Virus record (IMG/VR): IMGVR_UViG_2663763286_000016
Location: 1 to 11,101 of that record
From: a virus
Lineage: Duplodnaviria; Heunggongvirae; Uroviricota; Caudoviricetes
Length of the DNA stretch: 11,101 nt
Reading direction: 5' to 3' (one strand)
Part shown: positions 1-11,101 of the stretch, in pieces
How positions within the stretch are numbered: position 1 is the stretch's first letter
Layout: every line of letters starts with the position of its first letter
The notes under the pieces: generated by a model
Database searches by the model: none
The model's input: only the letters and a program-made list of their open reading frames with translations
Told to the model about the DNA's origin: nothing
Made by a program: the position numbers and the translations under genes

Positions 1-424
1 CTTCCTGCAACAATTCCTGTGCGCTAATAACCATATCAACGGTGATGTTTTCACATGTGTCGAACTTAACCATGACAGCGTTCTGTACTTCAGGGGCCAG
101 CTTGTCAAAAGTGACGTTCATCGGATCTGATTCAGTCTCAACCGGAACAAAGGAAGCAGACTCCTCATCCCAGCGGTTTTCCTGCATATATTCAGCATCC
201 CATGAATCGAGGGCAGGGCGGGGTATGCCAGGTTTATCCTCGCAGATAATAAATTTATAAGCGCAGTCCTGAGCAGCCGGATAATGTTCCAGGAATTGCC
301 AGTGAAATTTTGCTCGAGCACGGCGTTCGTCGCCAGCTTCAATAGCTGTGGCTACAGCCACAGCGCCTTCTTCCCTTGTTGCCAGTTCGTCAGGAATGGC
401 GGCGCAAATAAAGACTTTACTCAT
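1..424 (-). CDS. Hypothetical prophage early-region protein, N-terminal 141 codons only; gene continues beyond the window start
   Basis: ATG at 424..422 (minus strand) and an open frame to position 1 with no stop, translated by hand (MSKVFICAAIPDELATREEGAVAVATAIEAGDERRARAKFHWQFLEHYPAAQ...). GAGG about 10 nt upstream. Not in the ORF track because it lacks a stop in the window. Family not recognised. Confidence 0.5.
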   Translation of the reverse strand, partial: MSKVFICAAIPDELATREEGAVAVATAIEAGDERRARAKFHWQFLEHYPAAQDCAYKFIICEDKPGIPRPALDSWDAEYMQENRWDEESASFVPVETESDPMNVTFDKLAPEVQNAVMVKFDTCENITVDMVISAQELLQE

Positions 425-517
425 TTTGTTTTAACCTCATGACAGATTTAAGGATGAACAAATCCCTGCCATTGCTGGCATATAAGAATGAAACCGGATA
501 TTTATTACGGAACTGTT

Positions 518-709
518 TTAAAGACCTGCCGGGATTTCGATATTATCCTGGTGAATAACTTTATCGACCGGGTAACAGTTACCGGGAATTTTCTGTTCGG
601 TTGCTGCAGTCATACTCTCCTGCATTGTCCTGTGAACACTGACTGCAATATCAACTGCCTCTCCGGAAACAAGAAAAACTGTCAGAACAAGTGCAAATGC
701 TGTATTCAT
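518..709 (-). CDS. Small hypothetical protein (about 63 aa) with a hydrophobic signal-peptide-like or transmembrane N-terminus
   Basis: Internal start of track ORF 518..763. ATG at 709..707 has an AAGGA Shine-Dalgarno 8 nt upstream and overlaps the stop of the upstream ORF in an ATGA arrangement. N-terminus MNTAFALVLTVFLVSGEA is hydrophobic. Start is uncertain; 718 and 763 are alternatives. Confidence 0.4.
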   Translation of the reverse strand: MNTAFALVLTVFLVSGEAVDIAVSVHRTMQESMTAATEQKIPGNCYPVDKVIHQDNIEIPAGL

Positions 710-894
710 TGCCAGCATCCTTTTTGTATCGGACGTAAACGGGCCAACATTGAAAGAATGCATATTTTATTTAATAGCTCCCGTTCGTGTTTTCTCTTGT
801 TAATGGCATCTTCAGTAAATACAGGGTTACTGATAGTGACACCAATTTCAAAACAACCTTCAGACGTATTAACGTTTGGTAATAACGTTTCCAT
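706..894 (-). CDS. Small hypothetical protein (62 aa), translationally coupled to neighbours
   Basis: ORF track 706..894. GAGGA 7 nt upstream of the ATG at 894, overlapping the end of the Rha gene; its stop overlaps the next start (ATGA). No family recognised. Confidence 0.4.
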   Translation of the reverse strand: METLLPNVNTSEGCFEIGVTISNPVFTEDAINKRKHERELLNKICILSMLARLRPIQKGCWQ

Positions 895-904
895 TATCGC
901 GTCC

Positions 905-1462
905 TCAACAATGAATTTTTAGTAATTGCTCCACAGTCATATTTTTAATTGCGCTCCGGTTTACAAGAGTCCAGCCTTGTTTCTCCAGATAAAACTGGAA
1001 GGTATCCAGGGTGCAGACCATTGCGCCGTCCGGAACGGTTTCAGTGAATTTGATATTGCCGTGTTCGTCGAGACGGATAACCAGGGTACGTCCGTCCCCG
1101 TGAATCATTTTGTCGGGAGACGGGGCGTTATTCTGGCGCAGTTCTTTCTCCATGCGATCGAACTCAGCGATGTAGGCTTCTTTAAATGCAGCGGCTTTTT
1201 TGCTGGTGAAGCCCATCACCAGGAAAACGAAGCCGTTTTTGGTGATTTGGTACATTGGGAGTTTGCGACCGGTTGAGTCGGTATATTCGCTCGACACAAA
1301 ATTGTGCTCAGTGAATTTTGCTGAACAGTCCAGATTGCGAATTTTATCCAACACTCGTTCGTGGCGTTTACCAAAGAACTCAGCGATCGCAATAGACGTA
1401 GTGACAGCGCGTCCATTTTCGATGGTTACGTCAGGGTGAGAAAGGGTATGGATAGTAGCCAT
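905..1462 (-). CDS. Phage regulatory protein, Rha family (antirepressor-like), about 185 aa
   Basis: N-terminus MATIHTLSHPDVTIENGRAVTTSIAIAEFFGKRHERVLDKIRNLD...YQITKNGFVFLVMGFTSKKAAAFKEAYIAEFDRME matches the Rha-domain pattern as remembered. ATG at 1462..1460 with GAGG 8 nt upstream. The longer track ORF (to 1759) would read through an intrinsic terminator, so the shorter start is preferred. Confidence 0.8.
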   Translation of the reverse strand: MATIHTLSHPDVTIENGRAVTTSIAIAEFFGKRHERVLDKIRNLDCSAKFTEHNFVSSEYTDSTGRKLPMYQITKNGFVFLVMGFTSKKAAAFKEAYIAEFDRMEKELRQNNAPSPDKMIHGDGRTLVIRLDEHGNIKFTETVPDGAMVCTLDTFQFYLEKQGWTLVNRSAIKNMTVEQLLKIHC

Positions 1463-1491
1463 GATGGCAGCCTCGATAGTCAGTTTAAATA

Positions 1492-1531
1492 ACTCACCAC
1501 CAAGGCTTTCCACGACCATAAGGGTGGTGAG
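1492..1531. promoter_or_regulatory. 9-bp perfect inverted repeat (CTCACCACC ... GGTGGTGAG, 22-bp spacer) just upstream of the Rha start
   Basis: Read directly from the sequence at 1492-1500 and 1523-1531. Function as operator or RNA hairpin is unknown. Confidence 0.3.
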
Positions 1532-1630
1532 ACGTACAGGGGTGGAAATACCGGTGACTACCGAAACCGGCCAGCCTTTCGGCTGCCCTGCACGCCCCAC
1601 CATAATCTGAATGTGGCTGTGCATTACGCA

Positions 1631-1655
1631 TAAAAAAACCGCATGAGCGCGGTTA
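1631..1655 (-). terminator. Rho-independent terminator for leftward transcription
   Basis: On the minus strand: AACCGC-GCTCAT-GCGGTT hairpin (5-6 bp GC-rich stem) followed by a run of seven T (plus-strand A run 1632-1638). Lies between the pL-like operon and the Rha gene. Confidence 0.6.
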
Positions 1656-2297
1656 TGCGCAGTAGTCATCATCGGGTTTCCACGCCCGGCACCCGCTTTA
1701 TGAGGTGCAGGTGCACTATAATTCCACCCGTTCTGGTTTTCAATAGCTACATTCAACATTTTCTCTTACCCTTCATCACCGAAGTGAACTTTGTTGATGC
1801 AGTGCCTGGTGCCTCCAGGTGACGTTAACCAGTTAACAATTAACGCCGGATACAGAGAATCCACCCATAACACTGTTTTTGGTTTTAACTGTTCCGCGTG
1901 CGCTGAGCCGCATTCACCGCATCACAAAATTCACTTTAAAAAGGGCGGACATCAGTTCATGGGCAAACAGATGCCGCCAAACGTCACCAGAAAATTGATA
2001 ACAGAGGGCGTTGCAGCGGGGTTGTCACTTAAGCGTATGGTCAACCTGACAACCCGGTGTCCTCAACGGGGAAGGAATAACCCCGCCATACTTACCGCCG
2101 CGCCATTTCGCGGAGTGCCACAACCGGAAGCGCACGGTCGACGAAAATTTAACGACAGGCTATCTATGAACCAGCTACCTCGCCGTGCGCTTTCGCGTTA
2201 TGGTCTGACTTTTCAGGGAAATATCCTTTCAGTAAACTGTCAGTGCCGGATGCTTACCCGTGTCCGGCGCACGCACTCTACCTCACCCGTGAATAAA

Positions 2298-2684
2298 TTA
2301 ATGATTAATTGATATTTTATAGGTGGATTCAACTTTCCCATCGGATGTGTGATGCTTTAAATCACAGGAATTAATACTGCTTGCTGTAAAGTGATTTTCA
2401 AGGGGGGCTATTCGAATCCCTTTCTTTTTCATTAACAGGCCAAATCCCTTATTAATGATGTCCATTAATTCCAGAAAGTATTTTTCATGTAAATCCTGGT
2501 TATCAGAGAGCTGCTTCTCTTCGTATAGCCCGATAAAGGCTCGGCGCACGTTACCGGATATATTATCGATGGTTTCTTTTTCTACGGTACTCAGGTCAGG
2601 AGTAGCCAATTGAGAACGAACTATATTCGCTGCCATTTCCTGGAATGGTATTGGTAAATCTTTAAATTCCATCGTCAACCTCAT
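2298..2684 (-). CDS. Hypothetical early-left protein (about 124-128 aa), AT-rich gene
   Basis: ORF track 2298..2684. ATG at 2684..2682 overlaps the upstream stop (TGATG); an alternative ATG at 2672 has a GAGG Shine-Dalgarno (MEFKDLPIPFQEM...). No family recognised. Confidence 0.55.
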   Translation of the reverse strand: MRLTMEFKDLPIPFQEMAANIVRSQLATPDLSTVEKETIDNISGNVRRAFIGLYEEKQLSDNQDLHEKYFLELMDIINKGFGLLMKKKGIRIAPLENHFTASSINSCDLKHHTSDGKVESTYKISINH

Positions 2685-2836
2685 CAGTCAGTGTTTCTGG
2701 CTAACCAGCGACGCGCGCCAGATTCGGTTTTAAGCGTTTTGCTTTTGGTATACGTCATTGCGGTGAACGTACCGTCCTGGTTTGGGAACACGCCGCACAC
2801 CAGAGATTCGTTGTTGCCAAGATCGATAGTATCCAT
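2684..2836 (-). CDS. Small hypothetical protein (50 aa), first gene of the pL-like operon
   Basis: Internal ATG at 2836..2834 of track ORF 2684..2890 (MDTIDLGNNESLVCGVFPNQDGTFTAMTYTKSKTLKTESGARRWLARNTD), GAGG 5 nt upstream. The track start at 2890 is a GTG that would sit only about 17 nt below the predicted transcription start. Confidence 0.45.
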   Translation of the reverse strand: MDTIDLGNNESLVCGVFPNQDGTFTAMTYTKSKTLKTESGARRWLARNTD

Positions 2837-2886
2837 GCTGACCTCATTTCCCCTTAACGCCGGGGTAGCGGAACTGTTTGCTGAGA

Positions 2887-2900
2887 ACACCGTGCGGTGT
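2887..2900. promoter_or_regulatory. 14-bp palindrome ACACCGTGCGGTGT in the leader of the pL-like transcript
   Basis: Perfect 6-bp inverted arms with a 2-nt centre, read directly. Could be a protein-binding site or an RNA hairpin. Confidence 0.3.
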
Positions 2901-2913
2901 CTTGGTGGAGATT

Positions 2914-2942
2914 AATTTAGAATAACCTAACAAATGTGGCAA
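2914..2942 (-). promoter_or_regulatory. pL-like sigma70 promoter directing leftward transcription
   Basis: On the minus strand: TTGCCA (plus 2942..2937), 17-bp spacer, TAAATT (plus 2919..2914). One TTAG-N6-CTAA palindrome overlaps the -10 and spacer, a second lies just upstream of the -35. Confidence 0.5.
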
Positions 2943-2967
2943 GTATTTTTTGTTAGATTGGTCTAAC
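2917..2967. promoter_or_regulatory. Two putative operator palindromes of TTAG-N6-CTAA type (OL-like)
   Basis: TTAGAATAACCTAA at 2917-2930 and GTTAGATTGGTCTAAC at 2952-2967. The same motif recurs twice between the repressor and cro-like genes. Confidence 0.5.
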
Positions 2968-3004
2968 AAAAAGAGTGAGGGAATCTAAGTAACTGAAAGG
3001 AGTG

Positions 3005-3412
3005 TTATTTTATTGATTTGTTTTTACGTGCTTTAAGCATTTCTTCGAAGAGTTTATTGAAATTCTCTACTCTTGCGCGCATTTCAGACAGTAAGGCTTC
3101 CTGCTCGGAGGAGGGAAGAGCATCGAATAATTCGATCAATTCTTTGTGGCTGGGAGTTAACTCGGTTTCCACATGAAGTTCTTGTGCTGGCACTGGTGCC
3201 TTGTCTTCGTCACCAAACATTAGCCATGTAGGCGAGCACTTCAGCGCATCAGCTAAAGCAAATAACCGCTTCCCGACCGGTTGGGTTTCGTCTCTTTCCC
3301 ATTGTGAAATTGTGACGTGAGCTACCCCAGCGAGGCGTGCAGCTTCTCGTTGTGTTAGGCGTAATTCTTTTCGTCGTGCCAGAACTCGCTGGCCTAGGGT
3401 TCTTGTATCCAT
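3005..3412 (-). CDS. Phage repressor, XRE-family helix-turn-helix, 135 aa, no S24 peptidase domain
   Basis: N-terminus LGQRVLARRKELRLTQREAARLAGVAHVTISQWERDETQP is a classic Cro/CI-type HTH. It is divergent from the cro-like gene. No Shine-Dalgarno before the ATG at 3412 and a TAGAAT -10 about 9 nt upstream suggest a near-leaderless transcript, as for lambda cI from pRM. Confidence 0.8.
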   Translation of the reverse strand: MDTRTLGQRVLARRKELRLTQREAARLAGVAHVTISQWERDETQPVGKRLFALADALKCSPTWLMFGDEDKAPVPAQELHVETELTPSHKELIELFDALPSSEQEALLSEMRARVENFNKLFEEMLKARKNKSIK

Positions 3413-3414
3413 AG

Positions 3415-3478
3415 TTAGGTAATTCTAATTTTTCTTGACTTAGGTATCCCGCGCACATTACCGTTAGGAATATCTAAC
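3415..3478. promoter_or_regulatory. OR-like region: two TTAG-N6-CTAA palindromes plus candidate divergent promoters
   Basis: TTAGGTAATTCTAA at 3415-3428 and GTTAGGAATATCTAAC at 3463-3478. Minus-strand TAGAAT -10 (plus 3427..3422) overlaps the first palindrome. Plus-strand TTGACT at 3435-3440 is a candidate -35; its -10 was not convincingly resolved. Confidence 0.45.
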
Positions 3479-3492
3479 AAGAGGGGGCTTTG

Positions 3493-3720
3493 ATGCTTAA
3501 AGTTGACGCAATTACTTTTTTTGGCAGCAAAACAAAACTTGCCAATGCCGCAGGAGTGAAACTGGCAAGTGTTGCTGCATGGGGGGAACTGGTTCCTGAA
3601 GGTCGCGCGATGCGCCTGCAAGAGGCATCCGGCGGGGAACTTCAGTACGACCCCAAAGTTTATGACGAATATCGTAAGGCAAAGCGGGCGGGGCGGTTGA
3701 ACAATGAAAATCACCCCTGA
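3493..3720 (+). CDS. Cro-like DNA-binding protein (YdaS-like), 75 aa
   Basis: ATG at 3493 with GAGGGGG 5 nt upstream (the track start at 3490 is TTG). Sequence LKVDAITFFGSKTKLANAAGVKLASVAAWGELVPEGRAMRLQEASGGEL fits the YdaS/Cro pattern as remembered. Position divergent from the repressor. Confidence 0.75.
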   Translation: MLKVDAITFFGSKTKLANAAGVKLASVAAWGELVPEGRAMRLQEASGGELQYDPKVYDEYRKAKRAGRLNNENHP

Positions 3721-4225
3721 ACAGGTTTGTGAGGCTCTGGATGCCTGGGTATGCCGACCAGGAATGACACAGGAGCAGGCGACGATATTAATCACGGAAG
3801 CATTCTGGGCTCTGAAAGAACGCCCGAACATCGATGTTCAACGCGTCACGTTTAATGATGGCGAGGTTGATCAACGGGCGTTGGGCGTTAACCGGGTGAA
3901 GATATTCGAACGCTGGAAAGCTATCGACACCAGGGATAAGCGGGAAAAATTCACGGCGCTGATTCCGGCAATTATGGAGGCTATCCGGATCAGCGATTTC
4001 AGGTTGTATTGTGAAATTACTGACGGAAAAAGCATTACGTACATGATCGCCGGGTTAAACAAAGAATATGGTGATGTGGTGGAGTCCGGGCTGCTTTTTG
4101 CGGATCCATCTGTTGTGGAACGTGAGACTGACGAGCTTATAGAAAAAGCTATTGCTTTCAAGCATGCGTATCGTCAGCAATACCAACAAAAAGCTGGATG
4201 GAATTATGAGCCTTCTTTTTGCTGA
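3704..4225 (+). CDS. YdaT-like / cII-position early regulator, 173 aa
   Basis: ORF track 3704..4225, overlapping the cro-like stop. Central ALIPAIMEAI region resembles YdaT-family proteins of the Rac prophage (recollection, moderate certainty). Confidence 0.65.
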   Translation: MKITPEQVCEALDAWVCRPGMTQEQATILITEAFWALKERPNIDVQRVTFNDGEVDQRALGVNRVKIFERWKAIDTRDKREKFTALIPAIMEAIRISDFRLYCEITDGKSITYMIAGLNKEYGDVVESGLLFADPSVVERETDELIEKAIAFKHAYRQQYQQKAGWNYEPSFC

Positions 4226-5045
4226 ACGCCCACTGGTTATAAACACACAGCTTGCGATGAAGATTGGCTTAAATGAAGCCATTGTGTTGCAGCAGTTGCA
4301 TTACTGGTTGAGAGATACCAGTTCCGGTATAGAATGTGACGGGGTTCGCTGGATTTATAACACAACAGAACAATGGCTGGAACAGTTCCCGTTCTGGTCA
4401 GAGTCAACGTTAAAACGCGCATTTGCAAGTCTGAAAACGCTGGGGCTTTTGCGTTGCGAAAAGCTCAACAAATCAAAGCGTGATATGACTAATTTTTACA
4501 CGATTAATTACGAGAGTGAGCTTTTAGATGGTGGCAAAGTGAGCGAATCCATCAGGTCAAAATGCGCCGCTCCATCAGGTCAAAATGACACGATGGAAGA
4601 GGTCAAAATGGCACGCTCCATTGGTTCAAAACGACCCAATGTCATCGGGTCAAAATGGCCTGATGATCTTACAGAGAATACAACAGAGATTACTACAGAG
4701 AATAAAAACACTTCTCGTCCGGAAGCTTCGCAACCGGACCCGCAGACGGCTGAACAGGATTTTTTAACCCGACACCCTGACGCGGTTGTGTTCAGTGCGA
4801 AAAAACGCCAGTGGGGAAGTCAGGAAGATTTGGCGTGCGCACAGTGGATCTGGGGACGAATCGTGAGTCTTTACGAGCAGGCTGCCAGCGATGATGGCGA
4901 GATCACGCGACCGAAAGAACCAAACTGGACCGCATGGGCCAATGACGTGCGCACAATGCGGATGCTGGATGGCAGAAGCCACAGACAAATTTGCGAAATG
5001 TTTGGTCGGGTACAGCGAGATCCATTCTGGGTAAAAACATCATGA
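4206..5045 (+). CDS. Replication initiation protein, lambda O-like, with the origin iterons inside the gene
   Basis: N-terminal winged-helix-like region (EAIVLQQLHYWLRDTSSGIECDGVRWIYNTTEQWLEQFPFWSESTLKRAFASLKTLGLL), then a linker that encodes the iteron array. Start uncertain: ATG at 4206 (MSLLF...) is preferred over the track start at 4152 to limit overlap with the upstream gene. Confidence 0.65.
   Translation: MSLLFAERPLVINTQLAMKIGLNEAIVLQQLHYWLRDTSSGIECDGVRWIYNTTEQWLEQFPFWSESTLKRAFASLKTLGLLRCEKLNKSKRDMTNFYTINYESELLDGGKVSESIRSKCAAPSGQNDTMEEVKMARSIGSKRPNVIGSKWPDDLTENTTEITTENKNTSRPEASQPDPQTAEQDFLTRHPDAVVFSAKKRQWGSQEDLACAQWIWGRIVSLYEQAASDDGEITRPKEPNWTAWANDVRTMRMLDGRSHRQICEMFGRVQRDPFWVKTS
4548..4657. 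repeat. Iteron array (about five direct repeats with core GGTCAAAATG, 22-25 bp spacing): probable replication origin
   Basis: Cores at 4555-4564, 4578-4587, 4601-4610, 4623-4633 (degenerate GGTTCAAAACG) and 4648-4657. The 17-mer TCCATCAGGTCAAAATG occurs identically at 4548 and 4571. Followed by an A/T-rich stretch with two TACAGAGAATA repeats (4670-4704). Confidence 0.7.
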
Positions 5046-5170
5046 GCCCGTCAAAGCTTCGCGAAAAATGGGACGACCTGGTCATCCGCCTGGGGCGTTC
5101 ACCTGTACAGTGTTGTGTGAATCATATTTCTGAACCGGATACCGAAATTCCGCCTGGTTTCAGGGGATAA
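5042..5170 (+). CDS. Small ORF (42 aa) overlapping the O-like stop (ATGA); possible remnant or small replication-associated protein
   Basis: ATG at 5042-5044 overlaps the TGA at 5043-5045. Translated by hand: MSPSKLREKWDDLVIRLGRSPVQCCVNHISEPDTEIPPGFRG. Below the track size cutoff. No family recognised. Confidence 0.3.
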   Translation: MSPSKLREKWDDLVIRLGRSPVQCCVNHISEPDTEIPPGFRG

Positions 5171-5210
5171 GTGGTGATTTTAGGGCATAAAGTAATGTTC
5201 AGGAGGACTT

Positions 5211-5618
5211 ATGGCAAAAGTATTTACAAAGGAAGAGCGGGAAAAAATTAAAGGACAGGTGGTGGAACTCGTGCGCCAGAGCGGTCGTGAGACGTTACGG
5301 CAACTGGAAGCTAAAACAGGTGCGACAAGATATCTGATGAGCGTTCTTGCCAGAGAGCTGGTTGCCAGTGGTGATGTATATCACTCTGGCTATGGGGTGT
5401 TCCCGTCAGAACGGGCTCGTAAGGACTGGCAAAACGCCCGCAAAAAACTCTCGAGGGCAAAGGTGAAGAAACCTGTTGTGGTTGATCCGGGCCTTATCTG
5501 GACATTACCCGACGGAGAAATACGCCGCTACGACAGGCGTATGAACATAATCTGTCGCGAGTGCCGGAAGAGCGAAGTTATGCAGCGTGTATTGGCGTTC
5601 TATCAGGGATATGCCTAG
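5211..5618 (+). CDS. Hypothetical phage protein, 135 aa
   Basis: ORF track 5211..5618 with a strong AGGAGG 4 nt upstream of the ATG. Basic protein; no family recognised. Confidence 0.65.
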   Translation: MAKVFTKEEREKIKGQVVELVRQSGRETLRQLEAKTGATRYLMSVLARELVASGDVYHSGYGVFPSERARKDWQNARKKLSRAKVKKPVVVDPGLIWTLPDGEIRRYDRRMNIICRECRKSEVMQRVLAFYQGYA

Positions 5619-5664
5619 AATTGTCACAGGTAATGAAATTAAAGAGTATTGGTTCGGATATGAA

Positions 5665-5693
5665 TTGACATTTTCGCGGCACAGAGCTAAAAA
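5665..5693 (+). promoter_or_regulatory. Candidate sigma70 promoter in the AT-rich region upstream of the SIR2-like gene
   Basis: TTGACA at 5665-5670, 17-bp spacer, TAAAAA at 5688-5693. The 370-bp intergenic region contains several other -10-like hexamers. Confidence 0.3.
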
Positions 5694-5986
5694 TAGCCTA
5701 CTTGTTGGTTTTGTGTGAAAAGCAGACATTTTGAGGCTCAGGATTTGTTATCAAATAAGACCAATACTTATCTATATTAATACACATTAAATACTGTGCA
5801 ATACATTATTGCATTTTATTAGATAAGCGATATTTAGGGAAAAGAAAAGTCATAGAAAACAGGCCGCTATTTGTTGTTGGATTTTATAGGCTATATCTAG
5901 ATTATCTTGCCACTGCGGTCTCTGTTTACCTAACAGCTTGGGCTTCTTTGCATGCAAGTTTGTAATAACAAGTGTAATCAAACGGA

Positions 5987-7018
5987 ATGTCTATTAATCC
6001 TAAACTTAAGCGTATCGCGCGACGCTATCCAGCGTTATTCCAATATGAGTCCCCCTATATGGCAAGAAAATTAATAATATTCGGCAACGGTCTCGGTATG
6101 GCTTTAGATCCTGCTCACTTCTCCTTAGACAGAGCGTTGGAAGAAATTTGGCATCGCCCCAATTTTTTAAAAGATATCCACAAGCAACTTATCGAGCGTT
6201 GTCTTCAGCGGCAAGGTCCACCAGAAGGAGAACATGAGTTGGATACCCTTCACCAGGCTGTCACATATTGTAAAGCTCTTGCTCAAATTGGAGAGGGGAA
6301 CGTGCATTGGCTTACTGACGATGGACTAAACTTCCCCAAAATTACCGCCACTTATATTCACAAAGTTGCAACCAGGTTGCATAATTACGATAAAGGTTTG
6401 CCACAAAGATTCGAAAATGCGCTTGTGGAGTTTGTAAAGAACACACACTCACATATCGCGACATTAAACTATGACAAATTATTATACAATTCATTCATAG
6501 ATAATGATATATTCAACGGGTATGATGGGGTTTTAGTTGATGGGATGCTAAGCCACGGATTTTCCTCTGCAGCGCTCGAACGGAAATACAATCGTAGGTT
6601 TGGTTATTATTTGCACTTGCATGGTTCACCACTATTTATTAATCAGCATGAAAATGTTTTAAAACTTTCACGCTCACAACTTACTCTTGACATAGATGAA
6701 CCTAGTGAGCATATAGTGTTAACTCATATAAAAAGAAAACCGTCAGTTATAGCAGCATCTAATGTTCTTTCTACGTACTGGGATTATTTGCAGTTTGCAT
6801 TATTTGAATCAGAAGAAATAATATTGTTTGGTTACTCTGGTCTCGATATTCACCTTAACCTGCTTATTCGACCTTACCTAACCTCTAAGCCTTTAAGAGT
6901 AATTGAGTGGAGCGGTGCTGGTGAACAAAACGCTCGTGAGATATATTGGAAAAACCAGTTGAGACGGGAAGTTACTGTAATTAGGTTGGATAACATCACT
7001 GATTTTATTGATTGGTAG
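5987..7018 (+). CDS. SIR2-like protein (SIR2_2 / defence-type sirtuin fold), 343 aa; candidate NAD-consuming defence effector
   Basis: Glycine-rich N-terminal motif LIIFGNGLGMAL, TLNYD motif (residues 159-163), HLHGS (210-214) and a C-terminal LFGYSGLD motif, matching the spacing and residues of SIR2_2-family domains as in ThsA/DSR proteins (from memory). The gene looks markedly AT-rich. Start uncertain: 5987 or the in-frame ATG at 6059. Confidence 0.65.
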   Translation: MSINPKLKRIARRYPALFQYESPYMARKLIIFGNGLGMALDPAHFSLDRALEEIWHRPNFLKDIHKQLIERCLQRQGPPEGEHELDTLHQAVTYCKALAQIGEGNVHWLTDDGLNFPKITATYIHKVATRLHNYDKGLPQRFENALVEFVKNTHSHIATLNYDKLLYNSFIDNDIFNGYDGVLVDGMLSHGFSSAALERKYNRRFGYYLHLHGSPLFINQHENVLKLSRSQLTLDIDEPSEHIVLTHIKRKPSVIAASNVLSTYWDYLQFALFESEEIILFGYSGLDIHLNLLIRPYLTSKPLRVIEWSGAGEQNAREIYWKNQLRREVTVIRLDNITDFIDW

Positions 7019-7088
7019 CGCAATGCGAAGTTAAAGAGGCAGCCTCATATTTATCAGAGCTGGTGTACGTCCAATACAGGAGGTTATC

Positions 7089-7178
7089 GTGCTGGTTCTC
7101 AAATGCGCGCTGGCTATTGCGGCTGTAGTGGCAATTTATTGTCTTGCTATTGTTCTTATGGATCGCCTTTCTGATTGA
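7089..7178 (+). CDS. Small hydrophobic peptide (29 aa, single predicted transmembrane helix)
   Basis: GTG at 7089 preceded by CAGGAGG with a 5-nt spacer. Hand translation VLVLKCALAIAAVVAIYCLAIVLMDRLSD, stop TGA at 7176-7178. Lies 70 bp downstream of the SIR2-like gene on the same strand. Not in the ORF track (too short). Confidence 0.45.
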   Translation: MLVLKCALAIAAVVAIYCLAIVLMDRLSD

Positions 7179-7279
7179 TTTTATATTGGCGAGGTGACGG
7201 GAGTTAAGTAGAATTGCTGCGGGTGCTTGAGGCTATCTGCCTCAGGCATGAACACCAAAAGGCAGATAGAGAAAAGCCC

Positions 7280-7342
7280 CAGTTAACATTACGCGTCCTG
7301 CAAGACGCTTAACATTAATCTGAGGCCATATCTATGCGACAC
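7280..7342 (-). ncRNA. Putative Sok-like antisense RNA (hypothetical; extent approximate)
   Basis: Candidate minus-strand promoter: TTGACC (plus 7376..7371), 16-bp spacer, GCTAAT (plus 7354..7349). This would start an antisense transcript covering the start of the short leader ORF, as in hok/sok loci. No clear terminator was identified. Confidence 0.2.
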
Positions 7343-7393
7343 ATAGAGATTAGCCTCTTACGGACCAAAAGGTCAAGGAGAAGCAGGCTATGA
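7334..7393 (+). CDS. Short leader ORF (19 aa) coupled to hok; mok-like by position
   Basis: ATG at 7334 sits inside a hairpin (TCTATG cgaca CATAGA). The TGA at 7391-7393 overlaps the hok ATG at 7390-7392. Confidence 0.3.
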   Translation: MRHIEISLLRTKRSRRSRL

Positions 7394-7545
7394 AGCAGCA
7401 AAAGGCGATGTTAATCGCCCTGATCGTCATCTGTTTAACCGTCATAGTGACGGCACTGGTAACGAGGAAAGACCTCTGCGAGGTACGAATCCGAACCGGC
7501 CAGACGGAGGTCGCTGTCTTCACAGCTTACGAACCTGAGGAGTAA
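7390..7545 (+). CDS. hokD: Hok/Gef-family type I toxin, 51 aa (matches HokD/RelF as remembered)
   Basis: Hand translation MKQQKAMLIALIVICLTVIVTALVTRKDLCEVRIRTGQTEVAVFTAYEPEE. AAGGAG 9 nt upstream. Upstream leader is rich in long-range complementary segments. Confidence 0.88.
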   Translation: MKQQKAMLIALIVICLTVIVTALVTRKDLCEVRIRTGQTEVAVFTAYEPEE

Positions 7546-7614
7546 GAGACCCGGCGGGGGAGTAATCTCCCGCCACCTCTGATGTGCCAGGCATCCTCAA
7601 CGCACCCGCACTTA

Positions 7615-7635
7615 ACCCGCTTCGGCGGGTTTTTG
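7615..7635 (+). terminator. Rho-independent terminator after hok
   Basis: CCCGC-TTCG-GCGGG hairpin followed by TTTTT. The identical 20-mer recurs at 9449. Confidence 0.7.
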
Positions 7636-7645
7636 CATTGTCTGG

Positions 7646-7674
7646 TTGACAAAAATAGAAAAATGCGAAAATAT
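7646..7674 (+). promoter_or_regulatory. Candidate promoter for the 216-aa / HTH-ImmA module
   Basis: Perfect -35 TTGACA at 7646-7651; the -10 is imperfect (AAATAT at 17 bp or TATGTG at 20 bp). Sits immediately after the first terminator copy. Confidence 0.35.
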
Positions 7675-7709
7675 GTGGTTTACGAATTCTAAAAAAAGCG
7701 AAACTTGAA

Positions 7710-8360
7710 ATGAATGAAAATCAGTTAGCTCCTTGTTGGGAATTTCAACCTTATCTTGCTGAAAACTATGTTCGCCACTTGTTGGCGGAGATCGCTAACG
7801 TACTTGAGCAGCTGTACTATCATAAGCACGCATTAGACAGCAACTGGTCTGAAGGTGTAAGGGCTTATGATTGGGTCAGAAATCATCTTATTCAAAATGA
7901 AGATGCAATTCCTGGCCTTGAGATGATTTCCAAGGGGTTGGACTATGTAGTTGCTTTAAATAAAGTTCCGCTACAATTTACCAAAGATTGCATTAATAAC
8001 CCCAAAAAGAAACATCGTCTGCGTCGAAATAAAGTAGAGTATGAGCAGCTCTCATTGTTTGGTGATGTTGAGGCTGAGCAAGATATTACATGGCGAGTCA
8101 TAGCTGAGCCTTTTTTATCCGAAGAGGGCGATGGTGAATTAGAGTCCACACTGCCTCGTTGGGAGGTAGCTCTTGTTGGATTTAATACTTATGGTGCTCA
8201 GATTAGTATAGTTTCTCATCAATCTACAGCATCGATGCCGCTTATGCCTCTTGATTATAACACACTCCCTGACGAAGCGGAGATTAATAAGGTGCCTCTT
8301 CGTCGGCGTACGAAGGATAAAGATTTGGATGTGAGCAGTGATGGAACATCAGGTGAATAA
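7710..8360 (+). CDS. Hypothetical protein, 216 aa, first gene of a two-gene module; contains a QLSLF pentapeptide
   Basis: ORF track 7710..8360. No family recognised. Residues 113-117 are QLSLF, flanked by a basic run (NPKKKHRLRRNK) and an acidic run. The 3' end overlaps the start of the next gene. Confidence 0.65.
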   Translation: MNENQLAPCWEFQPYLAENYVRHLLAEIANVLEQLYYHKHALDSNWSEGVRAYDWVRNHLIQNEDAIPGLEMISKGLDYVVALNKVPLQFTKDCINNPKKKHRLRRNKVEYEQLSLFGDVEAEQDITWRVIAEPFLSEEGDGELESTLPRWEVALVGFNTYGAQISIVSHQSTASMPLMPLDYNTLPDEAEINKVPLRRRTKDKDLDVSSDGTSGE

Positions 8361-9444
8361 CTTCACTGAGTATCGGGGTGATAAGCTCAAACTAGCGAGA
8401 ATGGCTGTTGGGCTTTCTTGTGAAGAGTTAGCCGAAAAAATTGGCAAGACAAAGCAATTCGTTAGCAAACTGGAGAAGGGGTGCAGGCCATCGGAGCAAT
8501 GTCTTGAGTTAATATCTTCAGCGCTTATGATTAAGTCCAGTTTTCTTTTTACTGAACGAAAATACGCTCTGGAAAGTGATGTCTGCCATTTTCGGAGTAA
8601 GAAGTCCAGGACTCAAACGCTGACTAATAGTGTATTGGCCAGGGCTGAGATTCTTAATATTATAATTTCTGCTGTTGAAGGTGAAATCGAATTTCCTGAC
8701 GTTAACATACCGGAGCACCCAGGGGCTGAATTACTTACTCCGAATGATATTGAGCGAGTGGCAGAAGATTGTCGCCGTGCCTGGAATTTAGGTCTTGGCC
8801 CTATATCATCAATGGTTAAATTGGCGGAGAGTTTAGGGGTAATCGTTGCGCATGTTACGGGAGTCGATGATCGTGTTGATGCTTTTACTGTTCACAATAA
8901 CAGGCCTGTTATCATCAGGAACAATGTTAAAAAAAGCATATGTAGATTTCGCTCTGATTTAGGTCATGAATTAGGGCATTTAGTAATGCATGAGGGCATA
9001 ACGACAGGTGATAAACTTACGGAATCACAAGCCGATCACTTTTCGAGCGCCTTATTAGTTCCCAGGTTATCTTTCATTAAAGAATTTCCACGAATACGAG
9101 GTAAGCAATTCGACTGGAATGCTCTGGTTGAATTTAAACTTAGATGGAAAATCAGCCTTAAAATGTGTATTTATCGAGCCAGCGCATTAGGCTTATTGAC
9201 CCAGGAACAGGCAAGAACTGGCTATATGCATCTTAATTCCAGAGGGTATACGAGAGTTGAACCTGGTGATGAACTTTTGCGCCCTGAAGAACCCGGCATG
9301 CTGGCCGAGGCGATTGAAATGCTGGATGATGCAACCTGGCTAAGAATTCTTATGAAAACTGGCTTGAGCCAAGATTTAATTCGTGAGTTGTTCTCCATCA
9401 ACAGACCTATTACAAATCCAAGAAATATTTTCCAGATTGTTTGA
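8341..9444 (+). CDS. Fusion of XRE-family HTH and ImmA/IrrE-type zinc metallopeptidase (COG2856-like), about 367 aa
   Basis: N-terminal HTH (LKLARMAVGLSCEELAEKIGKTKQFVSKLEKG) and an HEXXH motif (HELGH, residues 210-214, around nt 8965-8979). ATG at 8341; the track start at 8338 is GTG. Confidence 0.8.
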   Translation: MEHQVNNFTEYRGDKLKLARMAVGLSCEELAEKIGKTKQFVSKLEKGCRPSEQCLELISSALMIKSSFLFTERKYALESDVCHFRSKKSRTQTLTNSVLARAEILNIIISAVEGEIEFPDVNIPEHPGAELLTPNDIERVAEDCRRAWNLGLGPISSMVKLAESLGVIVAHVTGVDDRVDAFTVHNNRPVIIRNNVKKSICRFRSDLGHELGHLVMHEGITTGDKLTESQADHFSSALLVPRLSFIKEFPRIRGKQFDWNALVEFKLRWKISLKMCIYRASALGLLTQEQARTGYMHLNSRGYTRVEPGDELLRPEEPGMLAEAIEMLDDATWLRILMKTGLSQDLIRELFSINRPITNPRNIFQIV

Positions 9445-9448
9445 GTAT

Positions 9449-9475
9449 ACCCGCTTCGGCGGGTTTTTTGTTTTT
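9449..9475 (+). terminator. Rho-independent terminator after the HTH-ImmA gene
   Basis: The same CCCGC-TTCG-GCGGG hairpin, followed by TTTTTTGTTTTT. Starts 5 nt after the stop codon. Confidence 0.7.
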
Positions 9476-9488
9476 ATTTTCAACGTGT

Positions 9489-9518
9489 TTGAAGTTTTGG
9501 ACGGTGCCAGAATAGAAT
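9489..9518 (+). promoter_or_regulatory. Candidate promoter for the downstream genes
   Basis: TTGAAG at 9489-9494, 18-bp spacer, TAGAAT at 9513-9518. Confidence 0.3.
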
Positions 9519-9553
9519 CAAAAATACTTAAGTAGCGCGCAGGGAGAAGAGGG

Positions 9554-9862
9554 ATGGACCCCGAACAGGGGGAGTGCTATTTATCTGGAAGGATTCTGTT
9601 GATGAAAATCGAAGAATTACGTGAAATTTTTAGTGAAGATGGCCTCTATACTGTGCGCGTTGAGAATGGCGCTATTGTCAGCCACTGCCGTATTAAATGT
9701 TTACAGTCTCTACATAGGAAGAGTGGAGCTGCGTTAATTTACTTTGTGGATGGACTTGTGACGGATGGTTTTATTTTGCGTGAAAATGAATTTGTCACAT
9801 CATTGCAGTCTCTGAAAGAAGCTGGGCTTAAGGCTGGTTTTTCTGCTTTTGAAGATGAGTGA
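9554..9862 (+). CDS. Hypothetical protein (102 aa; 86 aa if started at 9602)
   Basis: ORF track 9554..9862. AGGGAG 7 nt upstream of 9554; alternative ATG at 9602 with GGAAGGA upstream. No family recognised. Confidence 0.5.
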   Translation: MDPEQGECYLSGRILLMKIEELREIFSEDGLYTVRVENGAIVSHCRIKCLQSLHRKSGAALIYFVDGLVTDGFILRENEFVTSLQSLKEAGLKAGFSAFEDE

Positions 9863-9928
9863 ATTCATCTACAATTCAGCGCAGGACTGAACCCCTGTTG
9901 AGTAACACTGTGCCACCGGAGAAAGCCG

Positions 9929-10207
9929 ATGGCGCAAAATTCCAGATCACACAATTCTGATAATTCAGCCGTCTTTGCCAGCAGGCACGGGCGGCGCTCT
10001 CACGCATTTAAATCTGATTGGTACCAGCATCCCCCATGCACTGAAGAACAGGCCGAATGGCTGATTCAGTGTTACCGCAGGCGCGGATACGAGGTTAAGA
10101 AAGCCCTCAGTCTCGATTATCGTCACTGGATAATCTCTGTCAGGCTTCCTTATTCCGAACGCCCACCGCGTCCGTCCCGCACATTCCAGCAACGCATCTG
10201 GAGGTAA
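9929..10207 (+). CDS. Hypothetical prophage protein, 92 aa (sits where rem lies in Qin-like prophages)
   Basis: ORF track 9929..10207. GGAG 7 nt upstream. Its stop lies 1 nt before the start of the next gene. Confidence 0.55.
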   Translation: MAQNSRSHNSDNSAVFASRHGRRSHAFKSDWYQHPPCTEEQAEWLIQCYRRRGYEVKKALSLDYRHWIISVRLPYSERPPRPSRTFQQRIWR

Positions 10208-10208
10208 C

Positions 10209-11101
10209 GTGCGGGTATTACTTCGACCGGTTCTGGTACCGGAACTCGGGCTGGTGGTCCTTAGGCCGGGCCGTGAATCCATGCAAGTATTTCATAACCC
10301 TCGAGTGCTGGTGGAGCCTGAACCGAAAAGCATGCGCGGTCTGCCGTCCGGAGTCGTCCCTGCCGTTCGCCAGCCGCTGGTGGAAGACAAAACATTGCTG
10401 CCGTTTTTCAGTAACGCACGGGTGATTCGTGCTGCTGGTGGTGCTGGTGCATTGTCTGACTGGCTGTTGCGCCATATTAAATCCTGCCAGTGGCCACACG
10501 GCGATTATCACCATAGTGAAACCGTCATTCACCGTTATGGTACCGGCGCAATGGTGTTGTGCTGGCACTGCGACAACCAGCTGCGTGACCAGACATCCGA
10601 ATCACTCGGGCAACTTGCTCATCAAAACCTGTCAGCATGGATGATTGACGTCATACGCCATGCAATGAATGGCACGCAGGAGCGGGAATTGTCGCTGGCT
10701 GAATTATCCTGGTGGGCGGTCTGCAATCAGGTGGCGGACGCGCTTCCGGAGGCAGTATTACGTCGTTCTCTGGGGTTACGTGCGGAAAAAATCCGCTCCT
10801 TGTACCGCGAAAGCGACATCGTACCGGGAGAGCAGACCGCCATCAGCATACTGAAACAGCGCACAAAAAATCTTGCGCCGCTGCCTCACACCCACCAGCA
10901 ACAGAACCCACCACAGGAAAAGACGGTGGTCAGCATTGCCGTTGATCCGGAGTCTCCGGAATCCTTCATGAAACGACCTAAACGTCGCCGCTGGGTAAAT
11001 GAGAAATACACACGCTGGGTAAAGACACAGCCGTGTGCGTGTTGTGGTAAGCCAGCGGACGATCCTCATCATCTGATTGGTCATGGTCAGGGTGGAATGG
11101 G
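10209..11101 (+). CDS. DUF968 / YdfU-like prophage protein, 5' portion; gene continues beyond the window end
   Basis: GTG at 10209 with GGAGG 4 nt upstream. Open frame to the window end, translated by hand with no stop (VRVLLRPVLVPELGLVV...CACCGKPADDPHHLIGHGQGGM). The Cys/His-rich C-terminal motif and overall sequence resemble YdfU-type proteins as remembered. Not in the track because it lacks a stop. Confidence 0.65.
   Translation, partial: MRVLLRPVLVPELGLVVLRPGRESMQVFHNPRVLVEPEPKSMRGLPSGVVPAVRQPLVEDKTLLPFFSNARVIRAAGGAGALSDWLLRHIKSCQWPHGDYHHSETVIHRYGTGAMVLCWHCDNQLRDQTSESLGQLAHQNLSAWMIDVIRHAMNGTQERELSLAELSWWAVCNQVADALPEAVLRRSLGLRAEKIRSLYRESDIVPGEQTAISILKQRTKNLAPLPHTHQQQNPPQEKTVVSIAVDPESPESFMKRPKRRRWVNEKYTRWVKTQPCACCGKPADDPHHLIGHGQGGM

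Follow-up and report, generated by a model that had tools for sequence, protein, structure and literature searches.

The stretch of DNA analyzed here (hereafter the window) comprises 11,101 nucleotides, positions 1 to 11,101 of the IMG/VR virus record IMGVR_UViG_2663763286_000016, and is a segment of a lambdoid prophage whose nearest match is a prophage of Escherichia coli O55:H7 (97.9% over 5600-11101). It probably represents the early-right ("nin-like") operon of a prophage of the Qin/mEp460 type, with two sharply bounded cargo slots flanking a hok/sok toxin-antitoxin locus. Slot A, between a DUF977 gene and hok, carries a gene for a SIR2-fold protein, and slot B, between hok and a conserved open reading frame (ORF) of 92 aa, ORF92, carries a gene pair assigned to RosmerTA. 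In related loci unrelated cargoes lie at the same breakpoints, and the SIR2 and RosmerTA cassettes assort independently of each other. The two slots are a clear instance of moron/hotspot exchange in temperate phages and do not constitute a new kind of biology.

Backbone of the window and survey of related loci

We mapped the anchor proteins of the region on the 80 viral contigs closest to ORF92 and took genome counts over 5426 complete E. coli genomes, 4789 of which match some portion of the region. The states of slot B were counted in the 69 viral loci with both hok and ORF92, and the interval of slot A was measured in the 38 with both DUF977 and hok. Defence-gene profiles were taken from PADLOC, protein domains from Pfam, phage protein families from PHROG and RNA families from Rfam, and folds were compared with Foldseek on an AlphaFold2 (AF2) model. 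We consider it likely that the conserved backbone consists of a replication gene, DUF977 (ren-like), hok/sok, rem in some cases, ORF92, ydfU, rusA in some cases, and Q. The elements of this backbone that bound the two slots in the window are the following.

5211-5618, plus strand: DUF977/Ren-like gene, the conserved left anchor of slot A (Pfam DUF977 4e-29; PHROG 142, 'Ren-like exclusion protein')
7221-7392, plus strand: hok mRNA leader and sok region (Rfam RF01794 'sok', 107.5 bits against a gathering score of 59, full length 1-157)
7390-7545, plus strand: hokD, type I toxin of 51 aa (Pfam Hok/Gef, HOK_GEF, 1.2e-23 over 42/42 positions; 98.5% nucleotide identity to K-12 hokD)
9602-9862, plus strand: rem homologue of 86 aa (63/87 positions identical to K-12 Rem, 72% aa; PHROG 340)
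9929-10207, plus strand: ORF92, 92 aa (PHROG 1212), the right anchor of slot B
10209-11101, plus strand: ydfU (DUF968; PHROG 96 'HNH endonuclease' 6.7e-143), of which the 5' 297 codons are present, ending at the window edge

The preliminary description of the window had given the order relB-relE-hokD-rem-ydfU, in one orientation, for the Qin prophage of E. coli K-12, and had recognized hokD and a YdfU-like gene in the window. Both statements are confirmed: in NC_000913.3 relB-relE-hokD-rem-ydfU-ydfT lie on one strand, and YdfU of the window is 89% identical to its K-12 counterpart at the protein level. Homology to the Qin hokD-ydfU region is also present at the nucleotide level and is collinear, covering 7376-7635 (hokD and its terminator, 98.5%) and 9449-11101 (rem, ORF92 and ydfU, 85.5%) in blastn alignments. 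Further homology to Qin is found on the left, at 1-919, 1785-2291 and 2693-3983 (the dicB/dicF/dicA side). Gene order, orientation and backbone are thus alike in the window and in K-12 Qin, and the dicA/dicC/dicB/dicF side is related too. K-12 Qin differs from the window by having no RosmerTA insert, SIR2 gene, DUF977 gene, replication gene, or sok leader beside hokD, and by carrying a ydfW-flxA-ydfV-relBE block at the hok start codon, where the window has a full hok/sok locus. The hok-rem-ORF92-ydfU backbone is also found in the phages mEp460, HannyBb, Tritos, Evi and PPompW.

Two gene assignments change with this comparison. The preliminary description had placed an extra module and a 102-aa gene between hok and the gene in the rem position; the extra module is there (7636-9448), but the 102-aa ORF is rem itself, its longest frame running from 9554 to 9862 with a likely start at 9602. 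The 92-aa gene that had been taken to occupy the rem position is not rem: it is the conserved ORF92, which has an intact counterpart of 82% aa identity in K-12 Qin that lacks an annotation in MG1655. The MG1655 copy lies between rem and ydfU at 8307-8585 on the minus strand of the extracted K-12 locus (L002), approximately 1644306-1644584 of NC_000913.3, and in other E. coli the counterpart is labelled a hypothetical protein. Rem is an optional element, present in only ~30 of the 69 viral loci, and the spacing between ORF92 and ydfU is constant wherever both occur (75 loci), providing an invariant control junction.

The RosmerTA cassette and the variation of slot B

The sole insert between hok and rem in the window occupies 7636-9448 and is enclosed by exact direct repeats of 20 nt, for which the chance expectation in 5.5 kb is ~1e-5. 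The insert is missing at its exact limits in Qin and in three further loci (L004, L005 and L006), where the alignment to the window breaks at 7634/7635 and resumes at 9449. The parts of slot B in the window are as follows.

7615-7634, plus strand: first copy of the hok terminator hairpin, ACCCGCTTCGGCGGGTTTTT, terminator-like, the left edge of slot B
7636-9448, plus strand: RosmerTA cassette, the cargo of slot B (1.8 kb, GC content 0.415), with a conserved upstream region that includes TTGACA at 7646-7651
7710-8360, plus strand: RmrT, candidate toxin of 216 aa (PADLOC RmrT PDLC03929 4.6e-25; PHROG 5786 8e-85)
8338-9444, plus strand: RmrA, antitoxin of 368 aa (PADLOC RmrA 6.2e-105; Pfam HTH_3 5e-7 and Peptidase_M78 6e-11)
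9449-9468, plus strand: second copy of the hairpin, an exact 20/20 repeat of 7615-7634, terminator of the RosmerTA cassette and right edge of the insert

By its profile matches, the gene pair at 7710-9444 is identified as a putative RosmerTA system. The two genes overlap by 23 nt (8338-8360), no Pfam domain is found in RmrT, and RmrA retains an intact HExxH motif of the M78/ImmA-type zinc peptidases (HELGH at residues 210-214). RosmerTA defence systems are reportedly associated with the work of Millman et al. 2022. The family has ImmA-type antitoxins and its phage defence has been demonstrated experimentally (Ernits et al. 2023, PMC10440598). The pair displays no structural difference from RosmerTA: in both, a two-gene operon places a variable toxin upstream of an antitoxin with an N-terminal helix-turn-helix (HTH) domain and an ImmA/M78 zinc-peptidase domain with HExxH. 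By analogy with the studied members (PMC10440598), phage infection would lift the control of the toxin RmrT by RmrA.

The left breakpoint of slot B is nearly uniform in the viral sample, homology through hok ending at 7632-7637 in 60 of 68 loci, and on the right homology returns at 9449 in 24 loci (rem type) or at 9908 in 46. Within these limits the interval from hok to ORF92 takes at least eight states in the 69 loci, as listed here.

Rem only: 25/69 loci
Nothing (166-167 bp): 21/69 loci
Filler of 458 bp without a clear gene: 9/69 loci
XRE-HTH and M78 peptidase pair: 5/69 loci
RosmerTA and rem: 4/69 loci
ParD/ParE and a lipoprotein: 2/69 loci
Shortened rem: 2/69 loci
Small (Phd-like) protein, Fic/Doc toxin and rem: 1/69 loci

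All four protein-coding cargo types besides rem (RosmerTA, ParDE, Phd-like/Doc and XRE with M78) are toxin-antitoxin-like. PADLOC finds no match to the ParDE, Doc and M78 proteins, which Pfam identified instead. The XRE and M78 pair is also present in phage Tritos, and the Fic/Doc pair in E. coli C311. The filler is seen at 7543-8000 of one viral locus (L054) and in 8 similar viral loci, where it follows the hok hairpin in place of rem and holds no convincing ORF.

The two cargoes of the window move separately. We found the RosmerTA cassette in 237 E. coli genomes (~4%), in 224 of them at ≥99% identity; 224 genomes hold it in the hok-rem context. It occurs together with the SIR2 cassette in one stretch in only 8 of the 5426 genomes, and both single combinations are found: SIR2 without RosmerTA in L008 and L009, RosmerTA without SIR2 in L003. 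The RosmerTA cassette is 99.9% identical in 224 E. coli genomes of many lineages, compared with ~96% identity to the window in its flanks, which suggests that one allele has spread recently. A variant of 94% identity lies in a backbone that has no rem (L091), and a variant of 80% in the nin region of a different lambdoid prophage (L090), between Ea22-like/DUF550 genes and dinI. In the latter, the upstream sequence is the same from TTGACA onwards and the terminal hairpin has the same stem with another loop. The RosmerTA cassette is therefore self-contained, possesses its own terminator and has come to lie in two or more different backbones. The base composition of both cassettes also departs from that of the backbone (GC content 0.38 for SIR2 and 0.415 for RosmerTA versus 0.51-0.55).

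Could the lineages differ by losses alone, from an ancestor that held all of the cargo genes, with no exchange of cassettes? Deletions do occur: K-12 Qin corresponds to the locus of E. coli C10 minus 4.7 kb, and rem is shortened in two viral loci (L051 and L056). However, unrelated cargoes sit at the same coordinates, and an ancestor with all of them would far exceed packaging size. The near identity of the RosmerTA cassette (99.9%) in backbones that differ by 3-4%, and its presence in another prophage type, contradict a history of this kind, and homologues of the SIR2 gene are single genes in non-prophage contexts in Klebsiella and Serratia. We regard such a history as very improbable and largely refuted.

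The preliminary description had proposed a recombination hotspot at which toxin or defence cargo is exchanged. Unrelated cargo at identical breakpoints and independent assortment agree with the proposal, the recombination itself being the part that we infer. In the scheme we propose, the cargo units would act as self-contained morons between conserved blocks of the backbone and would move between co-resident or co-infecting lambdoid phages through recombination in the conserved flanks. In slot B, recombination might also proceed through the short homology of hairpin and T-run common to the terminators of hok and of the cassettes: the cassette terminators share a CCCGC...GCGGG stem and a T-run with the hok terminator, exactly at the junction.

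The same hairpin could be taken as evidence for a different route, in which slot B is a site-specific capture site, the hok hairpin acting as attachment site for circular cassettes that enter by a single crossover (Campbell/integron-like). The RosmerTA, XRE with M78 and Phd-like/Doc cargoes each lie between two copies of the hairpin, the second of which ends the cargo and is followed by the usual post-hairpin sequence of the backbone. In Qin and the other empty loci the hairpin is present once, and the two alignments of each such locus to the window overlap by ~21 nt. The left breakpoint is, as described above, very sharp, and the 14-mer core of the hairpin, searched in 963 kb of related loci, is found in 82 copies, every one at the slot B site. 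On the other hand, no recombinase is encoded in or beside any cassette, and the ParDE cargo has no hairpin copy that fits the search pattern. The cassette hairpins of L090 and L091 have different loops (TATAT and TACG), as expected of a cassette's own terminator that resembles the terminator of hok, and the L090 backbone has no such hairpin on the left of the cassette. We therefore judge capture at a dedicated site to be improbable, and prefer ordinary recombination between phages as the likely route of exchange. The hairpin was also considered as a generic terminator sequence, which is ruled out by the location of all 82 copies at one site.

Slot A, its SIR2-fold protein and the relation to known hotspots

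The cargo of slot A in the window consists of the following elements.

5676-7035, plus strand: SIR2 cassette (1.36 kb, AT-rich), with limits drawn from comparison with L003
6059-7018, plus strand: gene for a stand-alone SIR2-fold protein of 319 aa, related to the DUF4917 family

Locus L003 shares 4835-5675 and 7036-11101 with the window and holds another cargo, of 2.7 kb, in between. The GC content of the SIR2 cassette is 0.382 versus 0.51-0.52 in its flanks, and the cassette is present in 46 of the E. coli genomes. The interval from DUF977 to hok has 34 different lengths in the 38 viral loci (1.1-5.9 kb). Homology to the window breaks off on the left at 5606-5613, at the DUF977 stop codon, in 30 viral loci, and is regained on the right at 7036 (13 viral loci) or at 7198-7202 (43 viral loci). 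According to PADLOC, the cargo of slot A in other loci includes Tmn (2.9e-66), a CBASS cyclase (4.7e-144) with its 2TM effector (1.4e-84), a PD-T4-6/mad6-like Ser/Thr kinase (1e-37), a protein with an LmuA-like N-terminus, an Aga_REase-like protein and SIR2. Ea22-like genes and insertion sequences are also carried in some loci, and in O157:H7 the slot contains the adhesin gene paa.

PADLOC gives no match for 11 of the 18 slot A cargo proteins scanned, nor for two proteins of L040. In sister prophages their place is taken by Tmn, CBASS or SIR2, which makes them reasonable candidates for new defence genes. The proteins without a match include those encoded at L003 1151-2605 (484 aa), L036 6054-7091 (345 aa), L037 3794-4891 (365 aa), L017 2495-4848 (a trio of 410, 228 and 168 aa) and L040 5789-7132 (447 aa).

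The longest frame of the SIR2 gene begins at 5987 (343 aa), 72 nt upstream of the start at 6059 used by RefSeq and by the homologues. The first 24 codons are probably untranslated. Most of the homologues listed measure 316-325 aa, and their alignments begin near residue 25 of the longer frame. Several of the listed homologues bear SIR2 or DUF4917 family names. A search of the Protein Data Bank (PDB) sequences with the protein finds no match at E up to 1. The AF2 model (predicted local distance difference test, pLDDT, 85) gives as best Foldseek matches in the PDB the SIR2 subunits of SIR2-HerA/Nezha (8wld, 8suw, 8sub and 8j4u; E 1e-9 to 1e-7, template modelling (TM) score ~0.57). These rank ahead of the human sirtuins, with an identity to the matched structures of only 14-19%. 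Conservation across 32 homologues is seen for the motifs GNG (9-11), TLNYD (135-139) and HLHGS (186-190), which we take to be the NAD-pocket and catalytic Asn/Asp/His motifs of sirtuins.

With moderate confidence, based on the modelled fold, we read the protein as a putative NAD+-consuming abortive-infection enzyme. It has the SIR2 fold and conserved NAD-pocket motifs in common with SIR2-HerA/Nezha, Thoeris ThsA, DSR and SPARSA, and differs from them in being a single domain of 319 aa without HerA, TIR, SLOG, pAgo, a long C-terminal sensor or an adjacent partner. No ORF for a HerA-type ATPase or other partner lies between DUF977 and hok. The Klebsiella and Serratia homologues, which are single genes in chromosomal surroundings outside prophages, have no HerA neighbour either, and only in Klebsiella is there a 183-aa neighbour with a faint AAA_28 match.

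Several points weigh against the reading of the window as a pair of exchange slots for defence cargo. Defence by the SIR2 and RosmerTA genes of the window is predicted, and the Pfam score of the former (SIR2_2, 26.1 bits against a cut-off of 24.5) barely exceeds the threshold. Its PADLOC matches are weak (1e-5 to 4e-6), those to Aga_SIR2, PDC-S21 and SIR2 spanning 4e-6 to 4e-4. The 80 relatives of ORF92 were sampled without phylogenetic correction for their relatedness, and we infer the route of recombination from end-states only. A consensus scan of 7636-7709 for a sigma-70 promoter of the RosmerTA cassette finds none. In most E. coli copies, slot B holds nothing or only rem, in agreement with a survey of Hok loci that found hok enriched in prophages but located near known defence systems in 12% of cases versus 9.4% expected, with no general enrichment (bioRxiv 10.1101/2025.08.07.668861). 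Finally, the only studied DUF4917 protein that we found in the literature searched, the Campylobacter sirtuin SliP, is reported to be a secreted deacetylase and not a defence protein (PMC10421069).

The last point bears on an alternative in which the SIR2 protein is a deacylase or a host-directed effector like SliP, or else regulates the physiology of the phage or of its host, slot A being a slot for morons or virulence genes in general. Its homologues are annotated as DUF4917, the O157:H7 copy of the slot carries an adhesin gene, and no partner gene of the HerA, ThsB or pAgo kind accompanies the protein. Against this stand the nearest solved folds, which are defence subunits and precede the human sirtuins, and the presence of Tmn, CBASS and the PD-T4-6-like kinase in slot A elsewhere. 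The sporadic occurrence of the gene as a single-gene insert across many Gammaproteobacteria is likewise typical of defence genes. We consider a non-defence role unlikely, and retain the abortive-infection enzyme as the preferred reading of the SIR2 protein.

A lambdoid moron is an autonomous accessory unit located between backbone genes. Morons of lambdoid phages are reportedly treated by Juhala et al. 2000 and by Cumby, Davidson and Maxwell 2012, both of which PMC9122126 cites. The cassettes are like morons in being present or absent among similar phages, in their deviating base composition, in having their own terminator and in lying between backbone genes. They differ in that, in place of a promoter recognized by the consensus scan, only an upstream region with TTGACA is seen, whose sequence is conserved in L090.

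Defence systems are known cargo of lambdoid prophages (PMC9122126, PMC9519451). The slots resemble the hotspots of P2 and P4 prophages (PMC9122126; Vassallo et al. 2022, PMC9519451), where conserved phage genes likewise surround a short interval that differs among close relatives and that contains known defence systems together with many unknown genes. They differ from the P2/P4 hotspots in being lambdoid, in their flanking genes and in the arrangement of two adjacent slots split by a type I toxin-antitoxin locus; in slot B, moreover, small toxin-antitoxin pairs predominate, and the terminator hairpin that bounds it is duplicated. Limited searching of the literature yielded no account of either slot flanking hok, only the P2/P4 hotspots and general statements. 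We put forward as a tentative possibility, for which the odds are rather low, that the DUF977-hok interval is an unexploited defence hotspot comparable to those of P2/P4 and that the hok hairpin is a dedicated landing pad for small toxin-antitoxin cassettes. If that were true, the many uncharacterized cargoes of slot A (among them the 319-aa SIR2/DUF4917 protein, the 484-aa protein of L003, the 345- and 365-aa proteins and the trio of 410, 228 and 168 aa) would represent anti-phage systems that are new. Exact and reusable anchors, with which cargo can be mined in a class of prophages that is very common in E. coli, are provided by the 3' end of DUF977, the hok/sok leader, the unique 14-nt hairpin sequence CCCGCTTCGGCGGG and ORF92.

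The hok/sok locus, the relBE block of K-12 Qin and remaining features

To judge from the full-length Rfam match and the intact toxin frame, the hok/sok locus of the window appears to be a complete type I toxin-antitoxin locus. By contrast, there is no Rfam sok match beside hokD in K-12 Qin. The relBE genes do not lie directly upstream of hokD in the window, where homology to Qin stops at 7376, and neither RelB nor RelE is encoded in the window or in any of the 80 viral loci. The insertion of relBE is specific to the Qin sub-lineage.

The history of this insertion can be read from E. coli C10 (L007), in which the order is DUF977, SIR2, a small ORF with the sok leader, a transposase fragment of the ISEsa1 family, ydfW, flxA, ydfV, relB, relE, hokD, rem, ORF92 and ydfU. 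SIR2 of C10 is 87% identical to that of the window, and the piece with the small ORF and the sok leader is equivalent to 7031-7391 of the window. The leader ends in AGGAGAAGCAGGCTAT, a stretch of 16 nt that is found again just ahead of the coding sequence of hokD (L007 8745-8761 and 12062-12077). Because of this repetition, the 3.3-kb relBE block is best regarded as an insertion at the hok start codon. The length of the repeat is like that of the target duplications of some IS1202-family elements, and an insertion sequence may have started the rearrangement.

K-12 Qin differs from C10 by one clean gap of 4.7 kb (5273-9991 of the C10 locus), with which the remainder of ydaT, the replication gene, DUF977, SIR2, the leader and the insertion sequence fragment are lost. 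In the proposed sequence of events, the relBE block would have inserted at the hok start codon, separating hokD from the sok leader, and the 4.7-kb deletion would have followed. This would explain why K-12 hokD has no sok match and is without sok/mok. K-12 Qin then appears as a derived and degraded version, and the window as close to the undisrupted state. The textbook picture of relBE-hokD in K-12 would be revised accordingly, relBE having come within a block that entered at the start codon of hok. K-12 Qin is also without the 4.7 kb in which a close relative has a SIR2 gene.

The preliminary description had also placed the SIR2-like gene in the relBE position and paired it with a neighbouring peptide. 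A SIR2-fold gene does lie upstream of hok, but the equivalence of position fails: replacement of relBE by SIR2 was rejected, as both occur together in C10, at different sub-positions. The pairing with the peptide does not hold either. The cassette boundary falls at 7035/7036, and the piece that follows, with the elements listed here, persists in loci without SIR2.

7036-7200, plus strand: small module of 165 bp that holds a hydrophobic ORF of 29 aa
7089-7178, plus strand: the 29-aa ORF, VLVLKCALAIAAVVAIYCLAIVLMDRLSD, hydrophobic, with a GTG start and AGGAGG 5 nt upstream

This module comes and goes independently of SIR2. It is kept in L003 and L006, both without SIR2, and in the 13 viral loci with homology from 7036, and is missing where homology begins at ~7201. 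The frame of the 29-aa ORF stays open in 19 of 20 related copies, the changes among them being conservative. Its product, for which no family match is found, could be a toxin or a small membrane protein. This ORF is a better gene candidate than a 38-aa ORF with a TTG start at 7012-7128, possibly the peptide of the preliminary description, which was rejected as a gene: it has no family match and spans the cassette boundary. In a further ORF of 19 codons (7334-7393, plus strand) the stop codon overlaps the start of hok (ATGA), which makes it a possible mok-like coupling frame, though one far shorter than the classical mok.

To the left of slot A, the genes read rightward from the immunity region as a DicA-like repressor (3005-3412, minus strand), a Cro/DicC-like gene, a YdaT-family gene, the replication gene and the DUF977/Ren-like gene. 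Compared with K-12 Qin, the window has an extra piece of ~865 bp at 905-1784 (minus strand), between the homologies at 1-919 and 1785-2291. This piece holds a 284-aa ORF (905-1759), a C4 antisense RNA (1520-1607, 79 bits), an isrK RNA (1632-1708, 64 bits) and a weak c4 target element, and looks like an antisense-controlled antirepressor module of the P1/Gifsy type. A DicF-like RNA at 1943-1992 (minus strand) scores 43.5 bits, just under the Rfam gathering score of 48, and sits in a stretch that is 96% identical to the dicF region of Qin.

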